Shown: positions 18,885 through 50,764 of the stretch, one piece after another
Position numbering within the stretch: position 1 is the stretch's first letter
How the letters are laid out: each line of letters opens with the position of its first letter
Source of the DNA: a virus
Taxonomy: Duplodnaviria > Caudoviricetes
Length of the DNA stretch: 64,000 bases
Strand: one strand, 5' to 3'
IMG/VR virus record: IMGVR_UViG_3300028832_000118
Span: 1-64,000 of that record
Translations under genes and position numbers: made by a program
Notes under the pieces: model-generated
Database searches by the model: none
Told to the model about the DNA's origin: nothing
The model's input: the letters and a program-made list of their open reading frames with translations, nothing else

Positions 18885-21353
18885 CTAAATATTCCAATTT
18901 ACATTATCATTAATTATTAACTTGCTTCGGTTTAAGATTACAACAAATCCATTTCCTTCACCATTACCATCTTTTACGTGTATTCCATCGTACCCCTTTA
19001 ATGCCGCATATAAACCCAATCCCTCTTTTCTGTATTTGTTTTTATAAGAGTCATAAATGGCATGATAGATATTTTTCTTTACATCTAAACTTTTAGTCGG
19101 GTTTCTGAGCTCATCAAGTTCATTGCTTTTAGCTGTACGCTCAGAAGTTAATTTGCTTCGTTTGTCCATAAGTTTCTGCATACCGACATTAGAATTTGAC
19201 AACGCATCCTCTTTTGCTTTTTGCGCAAACTTTACATGCACTCTTTCAAACCAATCATTAAATCTGCTAACCGCATAATTATAATGAGGCAACACGTTAT
19301 TTTTTCTCTTTATAGAGCTTGGCCCATCGTACTGATAATTAGATATTGAAAACTCCTCATCGCTATTAGGCAACGTAAATACATATACACCTTTTTTTTG
19401 AGTTATCGTACCTCCGTTAGCTTTAATAAGTCCAGCCATTTCTTTGCCTACAAAATCATCAAACTTCGGGATGTCCCTATCGCCAAACGCATTTACAGCC
19501 CCCCAATCGGTATTTTCTTCAACAATAGAATAAGCCTTCCAAGCTTTTTCGTCATAATGAATATCCTTATAAGTATCTTCAATTACTTTATTGTTGTAAT
19601 TATTTATACTCTTGTTTATGGCATTTAATTTGCTGTCAATAGCATTCAATTCCCCCTCACACTTATTCACCGCTATCTTATCGGTAGCAACTAAATTCAA
19701 AACCTCATTTTTTATATCGTCATATTCCGCCATAGCGAAATCGTCAGGCAGTGCCATTTTAACAATAGCACCTAATCCAACACCTCCGTCATGCGCATAC
19801 TTTATAGCGTGTTTATACGCTCCAGTTTTATCGTAATTAGATTTAGTTTGATTGTTTATATTATCGTTATTATCATTTATATGAGCGTAAACTCCACCAC
19901 CATATACCCCCTGGGTACCATAGTAGCACTTATCTTGATATAAGAGGGAATCAACCGCCTCCTCAATCGTTATTTTGCCCTTGTTGCTATTATTACGATT
20001 ATCGGGGGAAAGTCCACGCAAAATCTGCACAAATTTACCATCTTTAATTCCCTTATCAACTACATCCCAATATTCTTTATCTGAAACAACCTTACCTCTC
20101 GCATTAAAACCTCTCATCTTACATACCTCAGAAATAGCTAACCAGCCAGTTCCAGGCTCAGTTTTCATAATCTTCATAAATGGGTCATCGGTACGGCATA
20201 TTTTCGTAATCTTATCCCAAACATCGTTCAACTCCTGCTCGGTAAATTCACGATACATATCCTTTTCAGGCATCAATTTTCTTGGTAAAACTTTGCGCTT
20301 TCCAAAATTCTTTCTTGCATCAATATCGTTAATAATATCATCTAAATTGTCAATTCTTTGCGCAATAGTTTTAGACAATTCATCTTCACCAACCTCCTTT
20401 AAGTATCCAACTAAATCACCCTTCTTTTTCCTAATCTCTGCTATCTGCTTTTTAACATCGTCATCAGTCAATACGTCTGCAAGTGATTTATTGGCTATCT
20501 GCATGGACTTGAACGTGGATAAAATATCCCCATCAAATACCTTCTGAGCACCATGCGCACGAAAATTCAAAGTACCTCCGTTATCAACATGTACAACATT
20601 GCCCTTTGAATCAATCAAGCAATTATCGTTATTAGCGTAAGCATCCCAATTAGCAAACAAACAATCAATAATAAACGTGTCTTTGAGTTTTTGATAATCG
20701 TTTGAATTAAATGGACGTGCATTATAAATAAATTTGCTCAGAAGCACAGCAGTACCATTATCATCATAAAGTTGATATTTAGGCACTTTTACGCCAGCAA
20801 TGCTATAAAGCTGATTAGCTAAATATTCATTGATTACGTGGTCATTGTTTGTATTTCTGTTAGTACCCTTCTTTTTTATATACTGATTGCCCTTAACATC
20901 CTCTACCAACTCCGCTCCCGTGCTGCCGCCTATATTTTGTTTAATTACTTTAAGGGATTTCAGGTCAATCGGAAACATATCATTAACCTGCTTTTCTAAA
21001 TCAGCAATTACCTTGGGTGGGAGTGTACTGCCCCTGCCTATATTTTTGTTAGCAACGTGCCAAGCGTACTGCGTTTGGGAGCCTGACTTGGTACGTGACC
21101 AAACATAAAGAACTCCATCAATAACTTTCGTATCTCCTGGCACAATAGCCTTACAAAGCTCCGTATCTTGTTCCAAGCCGTTTAATTGGTCATTTAGGGA
21201 CTTGGAGAGTATAAGCTGGTACATATAATCGTCTTCAAATCCAGTGCGCTGTTTATAGGTATTACAAGCCTTAACCAACATATCGGTAGAAACATAGCCC
21301 TCAGAGTGTCCAAGGGCTATCGTGTCTAATGATTTAAGTAAGTTTTCAGACAT
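18885..21353 (-). CDS. Putative virion-packaged effector: Trp module + PI3K/HipA-like kinase + ADP-ribosyltransferase-like domain
   Basis: Kinase: GGSTGA..YIKK, NEYLANQLY, ANWD..NNDN, VHVDNGG; ART-like: LRG, GVYGGGVY, KYA, GYDGI..VVILN. Confidence 0.65.
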   Translation of the reverse strand: MSENLLKSLDTIALGHSEGYVSTDMLVKACNTYKQRTGFEDDYMYQLILSKSLNDQLNGLEQDTELCKAIVPGDTKVIDGVLYVWSRTKSGSQTQYAWHVANKNIGRGSTLPPKVIADLEKQVNDMFPIDLKSLKVIKQNIGGSTGAELVEDVKGNQYIKKKGTNRNTNNDHVINEYLANQLYSIAGVKVPKYQLYDDNGTAVLLSKFIYNARPFNSNDYQKLKDTFIIDCLFANWDAYANNDNCLIDSKGNVVHVDNGGTLNFRAHGAQKVFDGDILSTFKSMQIANKSLADVLTDDDVKKQIAEIRKKKGDLVGYLKEVGEDELSKTIAQRIDNLDDIINDIDARKNFGKRKVLPRKLMPEKDMYREFTEQELNDVWDKITKICRTDDPFMKIMKTEPGTGWLAISEVCKMRGFNARGKVVSDKEYWDVVDKGIKDGKFVQILRGLSPDNRNNSNKGKITIEEAVDSLLYQDKCYYGTQGVYGGGVYAHINDNNDNINNQTKSNYDKTGAYKHAIKYAHDGGVGLGAIVKMALPDDFAMAEYDDIKNEVLNLVATDKIAVNKCEGELNAIDSKLNAINKSINNYNNKVIEDTYKDIHYDEKAWKAYSIVEENTDWGAVNAFGDRDIPKFDDFVGKEMAGLIKANGGTITQKKGVYVFTLPNSDEEFSISNYQYDGPSSIKRKNNVLPHYNYAVSRFNDWFERVHVKFAQKAKEDALSNSNVGMQKLMDKRSKLTSERTAKSNELDELRNPTKSLDVKKNIYHAIYDSYKNKYRKEGLGLYAALKGYDGIHVKDGNGEGNGFVVILNRSKLIINDNVNWNI

Positions 21354-21373
21354 AATCTTAACTTTTATTGTTT

Positions 21374-23269
21374 TTAGAAAAGCAATAATTTTTCTGCATC
21401 CTCTACGCTCATTTCTCCAAAGTCATCAATAATCGCCTTAACCACTTCGTCATCGTCATCGTTATCTAAAAGAGCATCAACTAATTTTTTACCAAACATC
21501 TTTTCAAACTCCTTTGGATTTTTCTTGTAGCGTGTTTTATAGCGTTTCAAATCATCTTTGGATAAATTTTTTATCACCTCTGCGCTGTTAGCTTTTTCAA
21601 AAATATCGTTTTCACCTTTATTAAGTTCACGCAAAGCCATCTTTTTCCAATCCAATGCTTTTGAATTTCTGCTGCCTCCAAACATTGCATCAAAATCAGC
21701 ATTCATAACGCTCTTTTTCTTTCCCTTAACAGTTCTAACGGCTAAATTCATAAGCTCGGTAAACTTTCTGACCGTAAACTTGAACGGGTCAATCTTTTCT
21801 ACGTTATTTATAATCAGATTGTAAACGCTTTCACGCAACTCTTTTTCTTGTTGTGGCGTAAGTTCTTCATATCTGCCGCCCATTTTTTCATATCTATTCT
21901 CAAGCACTTCAAGATTTTCATTCAACGTAAATTGAATGTCGTTTTTATCTGCACGTGAAAAAATAGCCTTCTTGTCTTCATCGGTAATAAGGTCATCAAA
22001 GGTTTTGTTTGTAATGAATATAAGTTTGCCCGTAAATCTTTCAGGCTTGCCATCCTTGCCAGGAATTAAACGCATTTTAGGATTAGAGTCAGCAATATTT
22101 TTCAACGCACTCTTCAATTTGGTAGCGTTACTAACAAGAGCCTTATCCTTATCATCAAAAATAATTATCTTGCCATTATATTTTCTCAGCGTTTCAAAAA
22201 AATCCTTTTCATCATCAATATCGCTTTCCAAAATAACGGCATCAACGTCATCAGCAGTCGGACTTTCATCTTTATCAGGGTCATAAACGTGCTTCGCATC
22301 ACTTTTAAGCAAATCTAATAAAGCGGTTGTTTTACCTGCACCAGCACCACCAGTAGAAACAAACATTGCTGAACCCTTACCCTGAGGCTGTTCAATAAAA
22401 CCATCAAGCTGAATACGTAATGCAGCTAATTGGTCTTCAGTGTTAAAATAATATGGGTCTTCACGTTTCATTAAATCTAACACCGCATCAAACTGCTGTC
22501 TATCGGTAAGCGTTTCAAAGTTATGAAATGTTTTCTTTACACGATTATCGTTTTTATTCATCCAGCCCGTATCACCCTTCGGGAATAACTGCTTATATTT
22601 TTCAACATCAAAATTGCCAATAGCACTATTGTAAGAGCTTCCGAATAAATCATCTATTTCATTTTTTTCGGGGTGCATCTTTTTCCACTTATCGGCTTCA
22701 TTCTCCCATTTGCCCTTCAAAGTGAAGGTTAATTTAATTTTATCTTCGGGAATGCCACGTCCAATAGCCTCTTCCCAAGCAAGCTGCTGAACATTCGGAT
22801 TTTTAAGGTTAGGATTGTTTATAATATCAATAATTTTTTGGTCATCCCATTGCTTTTTATCTGAAAAAAGTTTACGATAATCCTCACGCTTTTGTGTGAT
22901 TTTTTGCCCTTGTCTATTTTTAGCCTCCCATTCCTCAGGTACTTCATAAGCATAACCATACAAATTTTTAGGTGTATTTCTATACACCACCTTCGGTTTC
23001 GGTGCATCATACGGCTTTTTTACGGGAGCGGCTGGCTGCTGAGTAGCGGATGCAGCAGCAGGAGCGGCATCAGCAGCAGGTTTAGTATCGGTTTGTGCAG
23101 CGGTCGGGGCTGCTGGGGCAGCTGGAGCATTCTTCCCCTTCCAATATTTACCATCTTTACTCTTCCAATCGAATTTACCATTACCAAGGTCAGTCCATCT
23201 CCATAAACCATTAGGGTGTAAATCTCCTACGTTGTGTTGTGCTTTTTCTAAAATCTTATCTTTTGCCAT
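21374..23269 (-). CDS. Trp-module protein with C-terminal P-loop (AAA+/SF3-like) ATPase
   Basis: Walker A GGAGAGKT, Walker B IIIFDD, sensor/motif C IFITN; N-terminal EKA..GDLHPNGLWRWTDLGNGKFDWK. Confidence 0.7.
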   Translation of the reverse strand: MAKDKILEKAQHNVGDLHPNGLWRWTDLGNGKFDWKSKDGKYWKGKNAPAAPAAPTAAQTDTKPAADAAPAAASATQQPAAPVKKPYDAPKPKVVYRNTPKNLYGYAYEVPEEWEAKNRQGQKITQKREDYRKLFSDKKQWDDQKIIDIINNPNLKNPNVQQLAWEEAIGRGIPEDKIKLTFTLKGKWENEADKWKKMHPEKNEIDDLFGSSYNSAIGNFDVEKYKQLFPKGDTGWMNKNDNRVKKTFHNFETLTDRQQFDAVLDLMKREDPYYFNTEDQLAALRIQLDGFIEQPQGKGSAMFVSTGGAGAGKTTALLDLLKSDAKHVYDPDKDESPTADDVDAVILESDIDDEKDFFETLRKYNGKIIIFDDKDKALVSNATKLKSALKNIADSNPKMRLIPGKDGKPERFTGKLIFITNKTFDDLITDEDKKAIFSRADKNDIQFTLNENLEVLENRYEKMGGRYEELTPQQEKELRESVYNLIINNVEKIDPFKFTVRKFTELMNLAVRTVKGKKKSVMNADFDAMFGGSRNSKALDWKKMALRELNKGENDIFEKANSAEVIKNLSKDDLKRYKTRYKKNPKEFEKMFGKKLVDALLDNDDDDEVVKAIIDDFGEMSVEDAEKLLLF

Positions 23270-23273
23270 AATA

Positions 23274-24779
23274 CTAAAAATTTACTTTCTTCTTCAATTC
23301 TTTTATAACTGACGGGGTATTTTCTGATACCTTGTATTTTATTTTTAATTCGGTGACACCTTGTATTTTTAATTTTTTTTCGTCAACTGAAACATTATCA
23401 GGCCAACGCTCTAATAGAATTTTATGAGCTTTTTCAATTCTATCAGATTGTTTATAAGTTTCAGACAATCCACCTTTCTGCTTTCCGTCTTTATTCATTT
23501 TCGTATGTTGTACATAACGAATGAACTTTGCATATTTTAAGCCTAAATACATACACTTCAAAGAATAATCGACATCGCCCTTAATACATAACTCCTCATC
23601 TAAATCAAACTCCAATAGTTTAGGGCTGTTAATTATCGTGACTACTACTACACCTGAATAATTTGTCTTGCTTCCAGGATAGGCTATTTTAGTAACGGGG
23701 TGTTCATTATTCCAATCAAACGCACTTTTGCCAAGAGTACCAATATCAAAATCGGTATTGCATATCTCATCGTTCAGTTCTTCAAAAAATCTCGCAATAT
23801 CATCGTGTTTAGTAAGCGTTGGACCAAGTCTTGGGATACCATCTAAATTATAACAGAAATCTAAAATATCGTCATCCATTATAATAAGGGGATTAAAGCC
23901 GTCATACAGGTTTTTAGTGAAATTAACTACGTATGATACCCCTCTATCGTTATCGGGCAATACAAGCACATTTTTATGTCCGAAATCCTTGTATTTAGCT
24001 TCATCCTGCGGTTCTACTACTGCGGTATAGGGGATGCCGCCTTTATTCAGAATATCAAATGTTTTTCCATTCGGTCGGTCTTTTGATATTACATATATCT
24101 TAATATGTTTCTTTTTACTTACCTTAACATAGAACTCTTCAGGATATAACTTTTGAATATTCCCCTGCTCGTAAAAGAAAAAACCGCTTTGAGTCTTATA
24201 GAATTTTTGAGCAATTTTATATTTAATTGAATTTATCTCCGCATCGGAATTTTCGCAAAGCAATTCCATATTAGACATTTCATTTTCAAACTGCTCTTTT
24301 GCCTTACGCTTATATGAATGTGGAAATTCACGATAAAAGATAAAATTGTCTTCTATCGTGCGTAATAAATAACGTACAAAATAATGGTAGGGATGTCCAA
24401 CACCCATAGGGCATAAAATCATATATCCAAAGTCCATATATCGGTTTACTTTGGATAATAATTCATTCCTCAACTTTTCAATATTTTTTTTACCAATTCT
24501 TTTCTCGTAAAACGGAATTACATTTTCATCTGATAAAACAGCACCCTTCCCAAACTCGTTAAAAAAATCGGTATAGCTTTCACATTTAGTTTTTGTTTTT
24601 AAGCTAATTTGTTTTACTTTGATAAAATTGTACAAATTCTCATCTTCCTTTAATCTAACTTCATTATATTCTACAGTCAAAACCTTTGCACTAAAATCTT
24701 TATCAAAAATAAATTTTGAACAACTTAAAATAGCATCATCACTATGCGGTTGAATTATCAGTACTTTCATAACTCCCAA
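23274..24779 (-). CDS. PIG-L/LmbE-family deacetylase fused to TAGT/GREB1-like GT-A glycosyltransferase
   Basis: N-term IIQPHSDDAIL and GHPYH (PIG-L metal ligands); C-term IYVISKDR, VVEPQD, IMDDDI, KGDVDY..GG. Confidence 0.72.
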   Translation of the reverse strand: MGVMKVLIIQPHSDDAILSCSKFIFDKDFSAKVLTVEYNEVRLKEDENLYNFIKVKQISLKTKTKCESYTDFFNEFGKGAVLSDENVIPFYEKRIGKKNIEKLRNELLSKVNRYMDFGYMILCPMGVGHPYHYFVRYLLRTIEDNFIFYREFPHSYKRKAKEQFENEMSNMELLCENSDAEINSIKYKIAQKFYKTQSGFFFYEQGNIQKLYPEEFYVKVSKKKHIKIYVISKDRPNGKTFDILNKGGIPYTAVVEPQDEAKYKDFGHKNVLVLPDNDRGVSYVVNFTKNLYDGFNPLIIMDDDILDFCYNLDGIPRLGPTLTKHDDIARFFEELNDEICNTDFDIGTLGKSAFDWNNEHPVTKIAYPGSKTNYSGVVVVTIINSPKLLEFDLDEELCIKGDVDYSLKCMYLGLKYAKFIRYVQHTKMNKDGKQKGGLSETYKQSDRIEKAHKILLERWPDNVSVDEKKLKIQGVTELKIKYKVSENTPSVIKELKKKVNF

Positions 24780-25735
24780 TCTCTTAAAACAATATCAGAT
24801 AAACCCTTATTATTCTTCAATACATCATTAGCATACTTCAAAACCTCCTCACTCGGTTTCGGCATACTATCCTGACCGCTTGAATCAGGTAGAAAACCAA
24901 CTCTCATACTTATGTTAGTACATCCGTTACAAACTCCAAAATCACGTCTGTAATCATAAAGCATTATTCTTGCTGCCTGAAAATTAGGGTGATTCCAAAT
25001 TTCATCTATCTTCATTGCCCATATATTTGCAATAGGATATTTGCCACGAAAATCATCACAACATATAGCTACATCCCCCGTCCATCTAAAACTCATTTCA
25101 CGAAACGGCATTGTACAACGCTTATTATTATAAGACATATCCAAAGGAGCTGCACACCCCGAATGATTGACAAGACGCATCGTTGTTTTATTCCCACTCA
25201 TTTGTATTGGAGGTAAAAGCAAAATTCTTTTATCGTGCTTATCAGGAAACATTTTTATACCAGTTTCATACATGACAATTTTGCTTCTATTTTTACGATT
25301 TAATTTATTAACAAAATTCCAATCTCCGTTATCTGAATAACAATCTATCATAATATTATCCATACCAACAGAAAATAATTCATCTACATATTTATCCGCA
25401 TCCTGCGCATGATTAAATCCAAACCCGTTTGAATACATATGAAATGAATTGTTTGGCAAAAGCTCTCTAAAAATAGATACTATTTCAAAAAACTTTTTAT
25501 TTAATGTCGGCTCTCCGTGCATAGCAAATATTATCTTGCTTTTCCACTCCACACGTTTAATTTCAGAAGCAATCTTTTTAGCGGTTTCAACACTCATAAA
25601 ATTCCAAGGTGTCTTTCCGTTTTCCTTAACCCCTCTTAAACCGCAAAATTCACAGCCAAGGTTACACCCCTCAGTAGGTTCAACCTGAATAGAAAATGGA
25701 GGCTGCTGTTTGTAGCCATTTAGAAAATCTTTCAT
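24767..25735 (-). CDS. Radical SAM protein with SPASM/twitch domain
   Basis: CNLGCEFC (CxxxCxxC), HGEPTLN, C-terminal RCTMPF..AICCDD..VCNGC. Confidence 0.9.
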   Translation of the reverse strand: MKDFLNGYKQQPPFSIQVEPTEGCNLGCEFCGLRGVKENGKTPWNFMSVETAKKIASEIKRVEWKSKIIFAMHGEPTLNKKFFEIVSIFRELLPNNSFHMYSNGFGFNHAQDADKYVDELFSVGMDNIMIDCYSDNGDWNFVNKLNRKNRSKIVMYETGIKMFPDKHDKRILLLPPIQMSGNKTTMRLVNHSGCAAPLDMSYNNKRCTMPFREMSFRWTGDVAICCDDFRGKYPIANIWAMKIDEIWNHPNFQAARIMLYDYRRDFGVCNGCTNISMRVGFLPDSSGQDSMPKPSEEVLKYANDVLKNNKGLSDIVLRDWEL

Positions 25736-25757: not shown

Positions 25758-26696
25758 TTATCCTTTACTAACTTTGATGTTCAATTTAACTCCCTGCAAC
25801 TTCTTGTTTTTCGGTACATATTTTTTCAGCTTCGTGAAAGAGCGTGTTTCGCTATCCCAATCGGCATTAGGCTTTTTGTAATTGATAGTGCATCTGCAAT
25901 AAGGATGGGTGGGTGAAATAGTTGGCAACCAATCATCCTTCTTCCTGCCTATATTGTTGCCATTAGCTATTATGTCTTTTAGCTTAAAAACTTTGGGCTC
26001 GCTTACTCCTATATCGTGCGGAGGTTCAAGATAAAGCTCCGCACATTTATCACAAGCATTTTCGTAAACGTCAAAATACACTTCCGCATCTTTGCCGTAT
26101 TTTTTCAATATGCTTTGTGCCCTGCCTGAATTAAACGCTTCATGCGTAAGATAATAGGCAATACGCAACCAATCCACCTCCCAATCCTTGCTGGTCTTGA
26201 CAAGTTGAGAGGCTAACTGCCTCGCTCCTTGTCGGTTTTGTATAGCCTGAACTGTTTTTTGCTTTATTACCTGCGCAACCACTGCCGCCTGCTGCTGATT
26301 ATTTCGCAATAACGAATTTTGAAGGCTGTTACGCATCCTTGCACCTAAATTAGTTATATCGGTATAGGCACGCTGTTTTACAGTCTGTAAGGCGAAATTT
26401 TCAGCCTCCGTTAATGGGACAAAGCCGCCTGAAGCTAAAAACTTTTTGAACTGCGAATAAGTCATATTTTTTGCCCTCGCATCGTTAAGGGCTTCAGACA
26501 ATAAGCCAAAAAGAAAAGCGTGTTCAATCACGCCATTCTTATTCTTAAATTTATTTACATCTATCCCAGCGGCTAAAAGCAACGCTTTATCCTGCTGCGT
26601 CAGGAAATCTGCTCCAAGTTGATTAAAGATAAAGTAAATTTCATAACGCTTCAGGATTGATAAGGTGTCCTGTATTTGTGCAAAGGTAAAAATCAT
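25758..26696 (-). CDS. MuF/SPP1 gp7-like minor head protein
   Basis: THEAFNSGR, ACDKC, PTHPYCRC C-terminal signature. Confidence 0.8.
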   Translation of the reverse strand: MIFTFAQIQDTLSILKRYEIYFIFNQLGADFLTQQDKALLLAAGIDVNKFKNKNGVIEHAFLFGLLSEALNDARAKNMTYSQFKKFLASGGFVPLTEAENFALQTVKQRAYTDITNLGARMRNSLQNSLLRNNQQQAAVVAQVIKQKTVQAIQNRQGARQLASQLVKTSKDWEVDWLRIAYYLTHEAFNSGRAQSILKKYGKDAEVYFDVYENACDKCAELYLEPPHDIGVSEPKVFKLKDIIANGNNIGRKKDDWLPTISPTHPYCRCTINYKKPNADWDSETRSFTKLKKYVPKNKKLQGVKLNIKVSKG

Positions 26697-35012: not shown

Positions 35013-35849
35013 TTATCTTTTAGGGATAAAGAGTTTTTCAATTGTCAGATTTGAGTTATTTTTTGCAAAACTACATTCTTTATAAATCTTTTTAACACAT
35101 ACAAAATCATTTGGCATATCATACTCAGAAATAAAAATATTATTCTGATTTTTAGCCCACTTATAAAATTTTTCATAATCAAAATCCATACCATAATCAA
35201 AAGTTCCTTTATACGGAATATCGCAATATATAACACTATTTTCAGGAATTGGCACTAAATCATATTGAGTTGAATAGAATTTAATATTTTTATTTTTCAA
35301 TTCAATGAGATTGTTGAGCCTTCGCAATTTTTCAATGTGCAACATTCTCTTTCCGCTAACACTTCTTATTATTTTCTCCCTATCTTGATAGTTTACAACC
35401 TTATTTAAGGTTTTATTCAGTTTCAAAGATAAACGGATATCAATTTTATTTAGAAGCCTAAAATCATTAAAAAAAAGCACATAATGCAAAGCCCTTTCTA
35501 TTACTTCATAACCTTCTCCATACATATAGTCTTTCCCATTACTACCAAAACTCCATAAATATCTTACAAATGGGTCATAAGTCTTCAATTTATGAAATAC
35601 GTTCCTTGATATATATGCTCTTTTATTTTGATACCTGCCATTAATGGCGTTCTTCAAAAACGATATTGACATTAAATTCAAATCGTTCACAATTACCCTA
35701 TTGTATTTGCCACTTAAAACTGCATAATGCGCTACGCTCCCCCCCCCCGTGAATAAATCTACAAAACAATCGGCTTTCGGAAAAACATCAAATAAATCTT
35801 TCAAAATTTTAGTTTTTCCACCAACCCATTCTATTCCATAACTTTTCAT
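35013..35849 (-). CDS. DNA adenine methyltransferase (Dam/D12-like)
   Basis: WVGGKT, DLFTGGGSV (motif I), YCDIPY (DPPY variant), FISEY. Confidence 0.85.
   Translation of the reverse strand: MKSYGIEWVGGKTKILKDLFDVFPKADCFVDLFTGGGSVAHYAVLSGKYNRVIVNDLNLMSISFLKNAINGRYQNKRAYISRNVFHKLKTYDPFVRYLWSFGSNGKDYMYGEGYEVIERALHYVLFFNDFRLLNKIDIRLSLKLNKTLNKVVNYQDREKIIRSVSGKRMLHIEKLRRLNNLIELKNKNIKFYSTQYDLVPIPENSVIYCDIPYKGTFDYGMDFDYEKFYKWAKNQNNIFISEYDMPNDFVCVKKIYKECSFAKNNSNLTIEKLFIPKR
35739..35748 (-). repeat. G10 homopolymer inside methylase motif I
   Basis: C10 on plus strand; codons ACG GGG GGG GGG AGC. Confidence 0.95.
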
Positions 35850-35852
35850 ATT

Positions 35853-36170
35853 CTAATCCTCCACCTTCAAAATTTTGCGTTCAATCTTCTTTTGCATCGT
35901 TCTATCAAATACAACCATTTTTTCGTCTATTCTGCTAACTAAAATAATCGGCTCGCATAAATATTCATAAAGGGATATTTCATTAGTGAATGACGTTATT
36001 TCACCCCCCTCCGCTATCTCTTCAAATAACTTATCAAAATTCTCTATGCTAATACCATCCTCCAGCTCTTTTCGACTAACGTAACAAAGGCGGTTGACGG
36101 ATGTATCAAGCTCGGTCGCTATTATTTGGATGTCAAAATCTAATTCCTGATAATCTTTCAAAAATTTCAT
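35853..36170 (-). CDS. Hypothetical protein
   Basis: 105 aa, translationally coupled to neighbours. Confidence 0.55.
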   Translation of the reverse strand: MKFLKDYQELDFDIQIIATELDTSVNRLCYVSRKELEDGISIENFDKLFEEIAEGGEITSFTNEISLYEYLCEPIILVSRIDEKMVVFDRTMQKKIERKILKVED

Positions 36171-37252
36171 AACGATAATACTTTTGTTTTTGGTACAAAT
36201 TTACTTCTTTGCTTTCCCTCCCCTATCTGCATTTTCCAATACTTTTGAAATTCACAAAGCCACATTTCAATCTGATGTAACGTAATATTGCAAACCCCCG
36301 TTGTATAATATTCACCATAAACCTTATTCCAATATAAATATGGAAAATTCTCACCCCTTCTATCCGCAATTTCCTTCAGCTCTTTTTTAGCTAAATCTCT
36401 CAACCAATAAATTGCCTGCTTCTGCTCTTTTATGGTATTCAAGCTCGGATAAATCAATCTAATGCCTATGCTGGCGCCTGGCCCAACGTTGGTATAGTCG
36501 TTTTGGTCAAAACGCATAAAGGTACGTTTGGTATATCTTGGTATATAAGTCAAATCCTGATAAAGCTCGTGCGAAATAAAAGACGCTACAGTTGGTATAG
36601 TGTTAAGCTCTTCAATAAGCTCTTCAGCCGTACTGCAATTAGTAATAACATCGTAAATTTCGGGAATTTTATCGTGAAGGGCTGGCAGCGCAATACGTGT
36701 ATATACATAATCCCGTTTCTCGTGGGGAGCGCACGCTGAATTGATTAAATAAGCGTTTGTAAATGGGTTTTGACCGCTCGCTCGCACCCCGTTTATAAAT
36801 TTTTCAAATTCCAGCTCGTCATACTCATCATAATCGGGTATTCCATTTTTCCATCGGTAGGAGGGAATAAACTCAGTGTTTTGATTGAATAAATCCCGTT
36901 TAATATTCTTTGGATGGAATGTAAAGGTTTCGGGATTATTAAACAATCTATAAACCATCATCTTCCAAATAAGATTAAGGTCATCCAACCCGTCATCCAA
37001 AATAATAGTGCTAATTAAAAATTGACTGCTCCTATCTAATTCCCTATACACGTTGGTGAATTTAGAATTACGCAAAATTGGGTCATCCGTCCAAGGTGCT
37101 GGCACTTTATCTAAAAAGCGTTTTTTCCAAATCATCTGCCGCTCGTACATTTTTTCAAAAAACAGTTTCAAGTGCGGCTCGTAAACTTCTAAATTTTCAT
37201 CAGGCAGTTTATCTGCCCAGCTGTAACAATTCCAATTCATAACTTTTACCAA
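36167..37252 (-). CDS. Amino acid:DNA transferase (aGPT-Pplase1 family) for thymidine hypermodification
   Basis: ERQMIW..PWTDDPIL..KFTNVYRELDR; VGPGA; EMWLCEFQKY..G.G..R. Confidence 0.8.
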   Translation of the reverse strand: MVKVMNWNCYSWADKLPDENLEVYEPHLKLFFEKMYERQMIWKKRFLDKVPAPWTDDPILRNSKFTNVYRELDRSSQFLISTIILDDGLDDLNLIWKMMVYRLFNNPETFTFHPKNIKRDLFNQNTEFIPSYRWKNGIPDYDEYDELEFEKFINGVRASGQNPFTNAYLINSACAPHEKRDYVYTRIALPALHDKIPEIYDVITNCSTAEELIEELNTIPTVASFISHELYQDLTYIPRYTKRTFMRFDQNDYTNVGPGASIGIRLIYPSLNTIKEQKQAIYWLRDLAKKELKEIADRRGENFPYLYWNKVYGEYYTTGVCNITLHQIEMWLCEFQKYWKMQIGEGKQRSKFVPKTKVLSL

Positions 37253-49873: not shown

Positions 49874-50764
49874 TTATTCGTATTTTTTAATTTCCAAATC
49901 AATTACTTTTTCCATCGCTCTCTTTTTCTCCAAATCCTTTGCGCTACCGCTTTCGTCATACTTCTTTTGCGCCTCTCTCATTTTCTCTACCATCTTAAAA
50001 AAATTCTCAGGTGTCATTCTCTTTACTTTTTTATCGTTTTTATCTTTTTTTTCTTTTCTATCTAATTCAACCCAAAGCCCATTCGCCACCATCTTACTAA
50101 TCCAATCAGCACGCTCTTTATTTACATTTTCAAGGGTGCTATGAGTATATTGCCAATAAGTAGATACCCACCGCCCATCGGGCATTAAAACTCTGTCTAT
50201 CTTATAAAATTTGAAAGTTGATAAATCTAACCTCAGGCTATCACCGCACGACACCGCCCCCCTCGCACTATTATACAAGAGGTTCATCAAACACATACGG
50301 GCTGCGGTGTATGAAATATCATTGCCGTAAATTTCAGGCTCCATCCCCTCGCTTCGGGACTGCTCCAGCCCTGCCAATAGCGTTCTGCCGCTACCACAAC
50401 ACGGGTCATTTATCGTTCCACCATCAGGCTTTATTATCTGCGCCATCATCTTGCAAATGTTATCAGGTGTAAAAAACTGCCCATTCTGCCCGTGCGAAAT
50501 ACGTTCCATAAACATATCCCCTAATGGGTCACGATACCCTTCAGCGGCATCGCTATAAAATTCCAAAGCCTCTAAAAACAGCCTCTTTCGCTCCGCATCC
50601 CCAAATGTCTTTGTTAAAAGCTCTTTTTGCTGAGGGTTAGGGTTATTGCAAAGCAGCCCTAATGATAAGTCAAGAAAATCTGAAAACAAGTCGGAAAAGC
50701 TCAAGCCCCTGCCTAAGCTCATTCTCTCTATCGCTCTCTCCAAACTGCTGCCCGTTTTTTTCAT
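49874..50764 (-). CDS. N6-adenine methylase-like protein lacking the NPPY catalytic motif
   Basis: GQFFTP, DPCCGSG (motif I), GNDI, GDSL present; no NPP(Y/F) downstream. Confidence 0.7.
   Translation of the reverse strand: MKKTGSSLERAIERMSLGRGLSFSDLFSDFLDLSLGLLCNNPNPQQKELLTKTFGDAERKRLFLEALEFYSDAAEGYRDPLGDMFMERISHGQNGQFFTPDNICKMMAQIIKPDGGTINDPCCGSGRTLLAGLEQSRSEGMEPEIYGNDISYTAARMCLMNLLYNSARGAVSCGDSLRLDLSTFKFYKIDRVLMPDGRWVSTYWQYTHSTLENVNKERADWISKMVANGLWVELDRKEKKDKNDKKVKRMTPENFFKMVEKMREAQKKYDESGSAKDLEKKRAMEKVIDLEIKKYE

Follow-up and report, generated by a model that had tools for sequence, protein, structure and literature searches.

The stretch of DNA described here (the window) is the first 64 kb (64,000 nucleotides) of the IMG/VR virus record IMGVR_UViG_3300028832_000118 (Duplodnaviria; Caudoviricetes), which is 89,580 bp long and has a CheckV completeness of 91%. 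The large open reading frames (ORFs) of the window are all on the minus strand, and two of them, ORF A (24767–25735) and ORF B (23274–24770), are the subject of this analysis. ORF A is predicted to encode a radical SAM enzyme, and ORF B a de-N-acetylase fused to a glycosyltransferase (GT). A preliminary description of this DNA had drawn them as an overlapping two-gene unit, and this is what is found; read directly from the sequence, the stop codon of ORF A and the start codon of ORF B share an ATGA at 24767–24770 (minus strand), with a GGGAG a few bases upstream. The overlap and the GGGAG together suggest that the two genes are translationally coupled. We propose, with a probability of about 0.6, that this two-gene, three-activity module serves to attach a tailored amino sugar to the DNA of the phage itself, in that an N-acetylhexosamine (HexNAc) would be placed on 5-hydroxymethyldeoxyuridine (5-hmdU), de-N-acetylated, and then oxidised by radical chemistry.

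Starting at the ATG at 24770, ORF B encodes 498 residues and aligns end to end with all 26 of its metagenomic homologues (50–99% identity), and the TTG at 24779 that had been listed as its start is probably wrong. The AlphaFold model of ORF B, built on 24 homologues, has a predicted local distance difference test (pLDDT) score of 88.8 and contains two cleanly separate folds, residues 1–222 and residues 220–498. The N-terminal domain (residues 1–220; 24111–24770, minus strand) is assigned to the LmbE/PIG-L-fold de-N-acetylases by fold and motifs. In VIA-align comparisons, residues 1–222 are closest to Dbv21 (3dfi; Z = 17.4, root-mean-square deviation (rmsd) 3.4, 189 residues) and to the teicoplanin Orf2* (2x9l; Z = 16.9), the latter also matched by Foldseek (E = 2.7e-7), with lower scores for BshB (14.1), diacetylchitobiose deacetylase (13.6), and MshB (12.5). 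Two deacetylase motifs are present, PHSDD at residue 8 (His9-Ser-Asp11-Asp12) and HPYH at residue 126 (His126-Pro-Tyr-His129), and the residues His9, Asp11, Asp12, His126, and His129 are invariant in 24 fusion homologues. In a local alignment, PHSDDA of ORF B pairs with PHLDDA of Dbv21. Judged from the model, this domain represents a divergent branch of LmbE/PIG-L, the membership of which is given by fold and motifs.

The C-terminal domain (residues 221–498 and the stop codon; 23274–24110, minus strand) is assigned to the GT-A enzymes of the TAGT family by Pfam, PHROGs, and fold. The TAGT profile (PF20691) scores 37.3 bits (cut-off 27.5) over residues 226–437 and covers model positions 1–205 of 205, and no further Pfam family, and so no other GT family, matches ORF B at E ≤ 1. 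The PHROGs match is phrog_842, "beta-glucosyl-HMC-alpha-glucosyltransferase" (E = 4.6e-20). The motif VVEPQD is located at residue 251 and MDDDI at residue 298, with the DDD (DxD) at residues 299–301, and Glu253, Pro254, Gln255, Asp256, and Asp299–Asp301 are invariant in 24 homologues. The model of the domain has a GT-A fold, matched by TarP in Foldseek (E = 2.8e-7) and by ppGalNAc-T2 with Z = 13.4, and the enzymes that match it best, TarP, TarS, B4GALNT1, and the ppGalNAc-Ts, take UDP-HexNAc as donor. In BFVD, ORF B best matches a stand-alone TAGT of 267 residues (40% identity) and then a stand-alone PIG-L-like protein of 226 residues, followed by a long run of TET-associated glycosyltransferases. 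In a tblastn search of phage records with ORF B, the sole match is Nonlabens phage P12024L (26% identity, GT half only); its gp27, the only cultured relative of the GT domain, sits between a TET/JBP oxygenase and a methyltransferase. The preliminary description had read ORF B as a PIG-L-type deacetylase fused to a TAGT-like GT, and both halves of this reading are confirmed by fold, profile, and motifs. A grouping of the GT domain with non-nucleic-acid GT2 families, which it had named as one outcome that would speak against a nucleic acid target, is not what Pfam and the nearest viral structures, the TET-associated DNA glycosyltransferases, indicate.

The Pfam matches, the PDB sequence match, and the AlphaFold2 model (pLDDT 85.9) of ORF A (322 residues, minus strand) point to a BtrN-like twitch radical SAM enzyme. 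BtrN, the aminocyclitol dehydrogenase of butirosin biosynthesis, oxidises a secondary alcohol of 2-deoxy-scyllo-inosamine. It is the sole sequence match of ORF A in the whole PDB (E = 1e-11), and the ORF A model superposes on it (4m7t) with Z = 24.2 and an rmsd of 2.7 Å over 237 of 246 residues at 23% identity, followed by ChlB (Z = 15.1), anSME (13.9), and SpeY (13.2). Foldseek gives the BtrN match an E-value of 7.5e-13, and a Foldseek comparison of each domain, which had been suggested as a check, is favourable for all three. The CX3CX2C cluster motif of the radical SAM domain (PF04055, 59.1 bits) is formed by Cys24, Cys28, and Cys31 and is invariant in 32 sequences. The auxiliary motif consists of Cys207-X12-Gly220-X4-Cys225/Cys226 and Cys269-X2-Cys272, which is the twitch pattern CX12GX4C...CX2C, and residues 204–276 match the NCBIfam model N_Twi_rSAM. 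The cysteines are invariant or more than 90% conserved among 32 homologues, and those of the C-terminal part align with Cys169, Cys188, Cys232, and Cys235 of BtrN, the four ligands of its single auxiliary cluster. The seven-cysteine SPASM motif is not present in ORF A, which has 4–5 conserved C-terminal cysteines and no CX5CX3C continuation; the Pfam SPASM profile (PF13186) still scores 43 bits because the twitch domain is a truncated SPASM domain. Of the earlier assignment to the radical SAM/SPASM enzymes, the radical SAM part stands and the full SPASM domain gives way to a twitch domain with one auxiliary cluster. ORF A is thus predicted to be a one-auxiliary-cluster twitch enzyme and not a full SPASM peptide maturase of the anSME, PqqE, or sactisynthase type, and its model is closest to a sugar-type (aminocyclitol) dehydrogenase, not to the peptide maturases.

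The hydroxymethylated base that the module would act on can be sought in the rest of the genome. A ThyA homologue of 385 residues is encoded directly downstream of PolIII-alpha, at genome positions 70632–71789 (minus strand), outside the window. It matches PF00303 with 96 bits only and leaves ~48 positions at the end of the thymidylate synthase model unaligned, and it retains the Asn of GLPTN, a marker of uracil specificity. In a search of 2,635 phage records, it is matched best by the "dUMP hydroxymethylase" of SP-10 (39.8% identity, E = 1e-45), SPO1 gp29, and the homologues of SP8 and SP82G; SPO1, SP8, and SP82G are the classic 5-hydroxymethyluracil (hmU) phages. The genome also encodes a dUTPase and a YfbR-like HD 5'-deoxynucleotidase. 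Within the window, a 5-hmdU DNA kinase (5-HMUDK, or HMUDK) of 361 residues is located at 36167–37252 (minus strand), between the terminase and portal genes, and matches HMUDK_hel (PF18723) with 160 bits; by tblastn it matches the kinases of the T-hypermodified phages SP-10, M6, and ViI-like Salmonella phages. This kinase is a hallmark of post-replicative thymidine hypermodification. A profile search of the genome for TET/JBP (PF12851) returned none, which is a weak negative as the control genomes were also silent. Because the ThyA homologue keeps the GLPTN Asn and no TET was found, the hydroxymethyl pyrimidine made by the phage appears to be hmU and not 5-hydroxymethylcytosine (hmC), and hmU appears to replace thymine. 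The preliminary description had left the target at hmU or hmC and had pointed to a dUMP or dCMP hydroxymethylase or a TET/JBP gene as the genes to look for; the hmU half is kept and the hmC half is not, in that a homologue nearest to the dUMP hydroxymethylases is encoded together with a 5-hmdU DNA kinase and a TET/JBP gene was not found. A putative maker of a 5-hydroxymethyl pyrimidine, the ThyA-like protein, is encoded in the same genome as the TAGT, as is HMUDK, and each of these two genes also occurs in both complete related genomes. Of 13 related records, 8 have HMUDK and only fragments lack it, and the ThyA-like gene is additionally found in a related genome that is 89% complete.

The related loci (designated here by L-numbers) come mostly from one syntenic clade, in which the cassette occupies a variable slot with conserved borders. 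The upstream border is a conserved head-module protein of 312 residues (25758–26696, minus strand), the Mu-F-like similarity of which is weak (phrog_115, E = 8e-4; PF04233, E = 1.6e-3, below the cut-off), and 12 related loci have an orthologue of it (53–70% identity) directly upstream of the cassette. The downstream border is formed by two large proteins of 631 and 822 residues (18885–23269, minus strand; ~600 and ~800 residues in relatives), without a family match in profile scans, the orthologues of which come after the cassette in L004, L006, L008–L012, L015, L018, and L019. In the window, the slot holds the radical SAM gene followed by the PIG-L–TAGT fusion, and the genes of the prohead protease and the major capsid protein lie downstream of it. 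The order of the two genes is swapped in L004, and in L007 the fusion is flanked by two radical SAM genes. An FkbM methyltransferase precedes the fusion in L006, and separate PIG-L and TAGT genes in L028. The commonest form is that of L019–L021 (largest cluster, 504 members), with radical SAM, PIG-L, and TAGT as three genes. In seven loci, PIG-L is followed by a ~483-residue protein; L013 and L016 have InPase, radical SAM, PIG-L, and a ~478-residue protein in this order, and L024 has a radical SAM–PIG-L fusion of 534 residues followed by a 475-residue protein. The ~480-residue partner has no Pfam and no PDB sequence match, and its ESM-Atlas features fall with viral GT-B Glycos_transf_1 clusters and the T4 DNA alpha-glucosyltransferase family (scores 0.98–0.99), which is a lead, and a lead only, to a GT-B glycosyltransferase.

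Outside this clade, the recurring neighbours are DNA-modification or replication genes. In L017, PIG-L, a 95-residue ORF, the radical SAM gene, TAGT, and a 117-residue ORF are embedded between ADDT and HMUDK, with the portal gene following; a relative-locus search with the L017 radical SAM protein returned only L017 itself. In L025, the order is PIG-L, GT8, a GT-B-like gene, HMUDK, and TAGT. PIG-L and TAGT of L026 lie inside a clamp-loader/AAA replication module, and in L029 PIG-L and a 354-residue protein are directly upstream of PolB. This family-B DNA polymerase (L029:2237–5511) extends over two called genes and has intein-splicing and DUF559 endonuclease matches. From these gene orders, the constant unit is predicted to be a deacetylase with a glycosyltransferase of interchangeable family (at least three unrelated ones: TAGT, the GT-B-like ~480-residue protein, and GT8), and tailoring modules, a radical SAM enzyme or an FkbM methylase, would be optional additions. 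The FkbM-family methyltransferases (PF05050; L006:8848–9984, L008:2293–3321, and L028:5940–7004) replace the radical SAM gene beside PIG-L–TAGT or adjoin HMUDK, and may provide an alternative tailoring step by O-methylation of the sugar. In the split locus L019, the PIG-L-like copy (L019:6948–7628) has HAGD in place of HSDD and GQPFN in place of GHPFH, with the equivalents of Asp11, His126, and His129 lost, and the PIG-L copy of this commonest split form may be a non-catalytic binding module.

The proposed pathway would begin with the ThyA-like dUMP hydroxymethylase, which, helped by the dUTPase and the HD 5'-deoxynucleotidase, would supply 5-hm-dUTP for the phage PolIII-alpha to build into DNA. 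The TAGT domain would then place an N-acetylhexosamine, most simply N-acetylglucosamine (GlcNAc) from host UDP-GlcNAc, on the 5-hydroxymethyl group of hmdU in DNA, analogous to the step by which JGT makes base J. The fused LmbE/PIG-L domain would strip the N-acetyl group on the spot and leave a protonatable amine. In the last and least certain step, the coupled BtrN-like enzyme would abstract a C–H hydrogen of the sugar and convert a secondary alcohol to a ketone, or tailor the sugar in another way. The hmdU on which HMUDK acts may be a separate subset, or the kinase may act before the sugar is attached. The proposal draws on the predicted domain identities, the intact catalytic motifs, the coupling of the two genes, the recurrence and fusions of the trio, and the hmU/HMUDK pathway, all of which are read from the sequence. 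The deacetylated amino sugar suggested in the preliminary description has fared well in the parts that can be tested in silico (folds, invariant residues, BtrN likeness, and hmU genes), and the chemistry is what these parts would imply. A more specific and wider form of the proposal is put forward more tentatively, at somewhat less than even odds: that the base carried by the DNA is a J-like 5-(hexosaminyl-oxymethyl)uracil, the sugar of which the LmbE domain de-N-acetylates on the DNA and the BtrN-like enzyme then oxidises or tailors, within a glyco-thymidine toolkit that is modular and widely distributed (GT-A, GT-B, or GT8, with or without FkbM and the radical SAM enzyme). The likely benefit of such a modification is resistance to host restriction and CRISPR nucleases.

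Among known systems, base J (JBP1/2 and JGT) and the phage MT-TET-TAGT clusters share with this module a TAGT GT-A transferase and a 5-hydroxymethyl pyrimidine in DNA, and gp27 of Nonlabens phage P12024L is part of such a TET cluster. The MT-TET-TAGT clusters glycosylate 5hmC (Burke et al. 2021, PMC8256090), and phage GTs are reported to place N-acetylhexosamine on 5hmC (Pyle et al. 2023, bioRxiv 10.1101/2023.12.21.572611); in the latter preprint, deacetylases and radical SAM enzymes go unmentioned. The present genome differs in that no TET/JBP was found and hmU would be made before replication by a ThyA-like hydroxymethylase, and in that the GT shares a polypeptide with a deacetylase and has a coupled radical SAM enzyme. 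The thymidine hypermodification of phages M6, ViI, PaMx11, and SP-10 (5-HMUDK with ADDT/aGPT-Pplase) is similar in its dUMP hydroxymethylase homologue and 5-HMUDK and in the embedding of the trio in L017, and M6 gp53 is a precedent for radical SAM tailoring of a DNA-bound adduct (PMC8989533). However, the known adducts of these phages are amino acids or polyamines and not sugars, and glycosyltransferases, sugars, and deacetylases are unmentioned by Lee et al. 2021 (PMC8989533). In addition, M6 gp53 is spore-photoproduct-lyase-like whereas ORF A is BtrN/twitch-like, and ADDT was not detected in this genome, by a search that is insensitive for it.

Pairs of a GlcNAc-transferase and an LmbE-type deacetylase are recurrent in nature, as in MshA/MshB, BshA/BshB, PIG-A/PIG-L, and BtrM/BtrD, and the butirosin pathway combines the GlcNAc-transferase BtrM and the LmbE-type deacetylase BtrD with the dehydrogenase BtrN. 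These pairs, together with teicoplanin Orf2*/Dbv21, add GlcNAc and then de-N-acetylate it, their deacetylase folds match that of ORF B with Z = 12.5–17.4, and the butirosin trio also has the closest counterpart of ORF A as its radical SAM partner. On the other hand, their acceptors are small molecules or lipids. The present cassette belongs to a phage that has an hmU pathway, its GT is a TAGT of the GT-A type, fused to the deacetylase, and not a GT4, and no aminotransferase was found that would follow the dehydrogenase. The phages SP-15, YerA41, and Carin-5 have thymidine-derived bases with Glc or GlcNAc, and the Carin-5 gene block contains glycosyltransferases and a predicted GlcNAc N-deacetylase (PMC12686479). 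Their sugar is carried on a phosphorylated dihydroxypentyl linker, the Carin-5 deacetylase carries the annotation of a polysaccharide deacetylase, not of an LmbE-type enzyme, and no TAGT, HMUDK, or radical SAM enzyme is reported there (PMC12686479); none of the three phages is among the tblastn matches to ORF B. The Stenotrophomonas phages DLP3 and DLP5 (PMC7326821) encode a PIG-L deacetylase beside WcaG, a WecE aminotransferase, a methyltransferase, and a 482-residue BshA-like GT, and this cluster is not taken up in a 2026 paper on DLP3 DNA glycosylation. These two phages could be a cultured model for GT and deacetylase chemistry on DNA. A literature search on LmbE/PIG-L or BtrN in phage DNA modification, which did not cover the original TAGT/HMUDK paper (Iyer et al. 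2013), turned up no account of the module.

Several observations weigh against the proposal that the module makes an amino sugar on hmU. Which sugar is donated, which acceptor receives it, and in what order the steps follow are all deduced, and the phage is uncultured. Residues 1–220 of ORF B have no Pfam match at E ≤ 1, PF02585 included, and no NCBIfam match, and a profile search with this domain against PDB sequences gave nothing significant; the stand-alone PIG-L copy of L017 likewise has no Pfam match at E ≤ 0.05. The PIG-L copy of the commonest split form is degenerate, and deacetylation is therefore not universal in the family. The co-occurrence with HMUDK and the ThyA-like gene is not independent evidence because most of the related records belong to one syntenic clade. 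No DegT-type sugar aminotransferase, which could use a keto sugar, was found in the genome, in a search with valid controls. The presence of HMUDK beside the GT also speaks against the proposal, as phosphorylation of the 5-CH2OH group would block direct O-glycosylation. Finally, no ADDT was found by a profile search of the genome, by Pfam scans of ~65 ORFs (small ORFs in part), or by phmmer with the L017 ADDT; the genome profile search is insensitive for this family and missed PF18724 in G012, the record of L017, where hmmscan gives 28.2 bits at L017:9015–10004.

An alternative to the proposal is a DNA target with different chemistry, in which the sugar is attached via the HMUDK phosphate (a phosphodiester bridge of the SP-15/Carin-5 type) or sits on an amino-acid adduct, or in which PIG-L deacylates an adduct that is not a sugar. 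The window and all related records of sufficient length encode HMUDK, which directly adjoins TAGT in L017 and L025, the SP-15-like thymidine modifications acquire a phosphate and, after it, Glc or GlcNAc (PMC12686479), and PaMx11 makes an N-acetylated aminomethyl-dU (PMC8989533). However, PIG-L is fused or adjacent to GTs of at least three families and not to ADDT or acetyltransferases, and the failure to find ADDT here, insensitive as the search is, points the same way. GT-A enzymes normally use hydroxyl and not phosphate acceptors, and the characterised LmbE-fold amidases all act on N-acyl-glucosaminides. Altogether, we regard such linkages as unlikely. A different target, a virion protein, had been left as an alternative in the preliminary description on account of the location among head genes, and the GT-deacetylase and radical SAM enzyme would then act on a head or ejected protein of the same operon, such as the 631- or 822-residue protein or the capsid. 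Across the window's own clade the cassette is indeed always in the head module, between the weakly Mu-F-like protein and the two large virion-type proteins. GREB1, which is a protein O-GlcNAc transferase, also belongs to the TAGT family (PMC7968844), polypeptide GalNAc-transferases are among the top GT-A structural matches (Z of about 13), and SPASM/twitch radical SAM enzymes often act on peptides. Yet the location says little because HMUDK and the Dam methylase are also interspersed in the structural module, between the terminase and portal genes, and the copies of other lineages are not found in head modules but beside HMUDK/ADDT or PolB or within a replication module. ORF A is far nearer to BtrN than to the peptide maturases ChlB, anSME, SuiB, and CteB (Z = 13–15), and the nearest viral GT structures are DNA-type TAGTs. 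The isoelectric points of the domains (7.2–8.6) do not tell a DNA target from a protein target. A virion-protein target is accordingly considered improbable.

The likeness to BtrM, BtrD, and BtrN, which extends to all three activities, and the resemblance of the GT domain to the wall-teichoic-acid GlcNAc-transferases TarP and TarS would also fit a remodelling of host envelope glycans or the synthesis of a small aminoglycoside-like metabolite. The aminotransferase search and the Pfam scans revealed neither a 2-deoxy-scyllo-inosose synthase nor a sugar aminotransferase, and the aminoglycoside-like metabolite was rejected on this ground. No membrane or secretion signals are found in the sequences of ORF A and ORF B, the Pfam assignment of the GT is TAGT and not GT2 or GT4, and the linkage to HMUDK, ADDT, and PolB is consistent, which leaves envelope remodelling or a metabolite with very little probability.

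Other features of the genome and of the related loci were noted alongside the cassette. A direct repeat of ~73 nt lies at 27–100 of the window and again at 89481–89553 of the genome, near both ends of the record, which suggests that the genome is essentially complete and either circularly permuted or terminally redundant, although the IMG/VR class is linear. Two DNA N6-adenine methyltransferases (D12 class and N6_Mtase) are encoded at 35013–35849 and 49874–50764 of the window, and the phage DNA probably also carries N6-methyladenine. No matches were obtained when 8 kb around the locus were compared by megablast with 50,697 phage records, and no close cultured relative was found by megablast and tblastn against phage records. 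In the relatives, an InPase inorganic-pyrophosphatase domain (PF18823, 161 bits) occurs directly upstream of the radical SAM, PIG-L, and GT genes (L013:6543–7115), and in L004 (8477–9955) InPase is found on a 492-residue, C-terminally extended Mu-F-like head protein, which is similarly extended in L014 and L015 (489–495 residues). The head module of L020 (2035–3789) and L021 (1411–3165) encodes a 584-residue protein with an ADP-ribosylating exotoxin-like domain (PF03496), which is probably an ejected effector.

The glycosylation of hydroxymethyl pyrimidines by TAGTs (PMC8256090), HMUDK-based thymidine hypermodification (PMC8989533), and HexNAc on phage DNA are already known. If the more specific form of the proposal is correct, the module would provide the first sugar deacetylation on DNA and the first carbohydrate-type radical SAM enzyme to act on a DNA-linked glycan. 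To our knowledge, the sugars of phage DNA are neutral hexoses, arabinose, or HexNAc on hmC or hydroxycytosine (hoC), and we know of no virus in which the base chemistry of a tailored amino sugar on hmU DNA has been measured. Natural DNA bases would gain a new class in hmU carrying a cationic amino sugar that has been further oxidised. The enzymes would be new tools for labelling 5hmU, and the modified DNA would supply new substrates with bulky charged bases for studies of restriction, CRISPR, and type IV systems. In the modular slot, GTs of three families, a methylase, and radical SAM genes (one or two) are exchanged, which suggests a diversifying arms-race locus.

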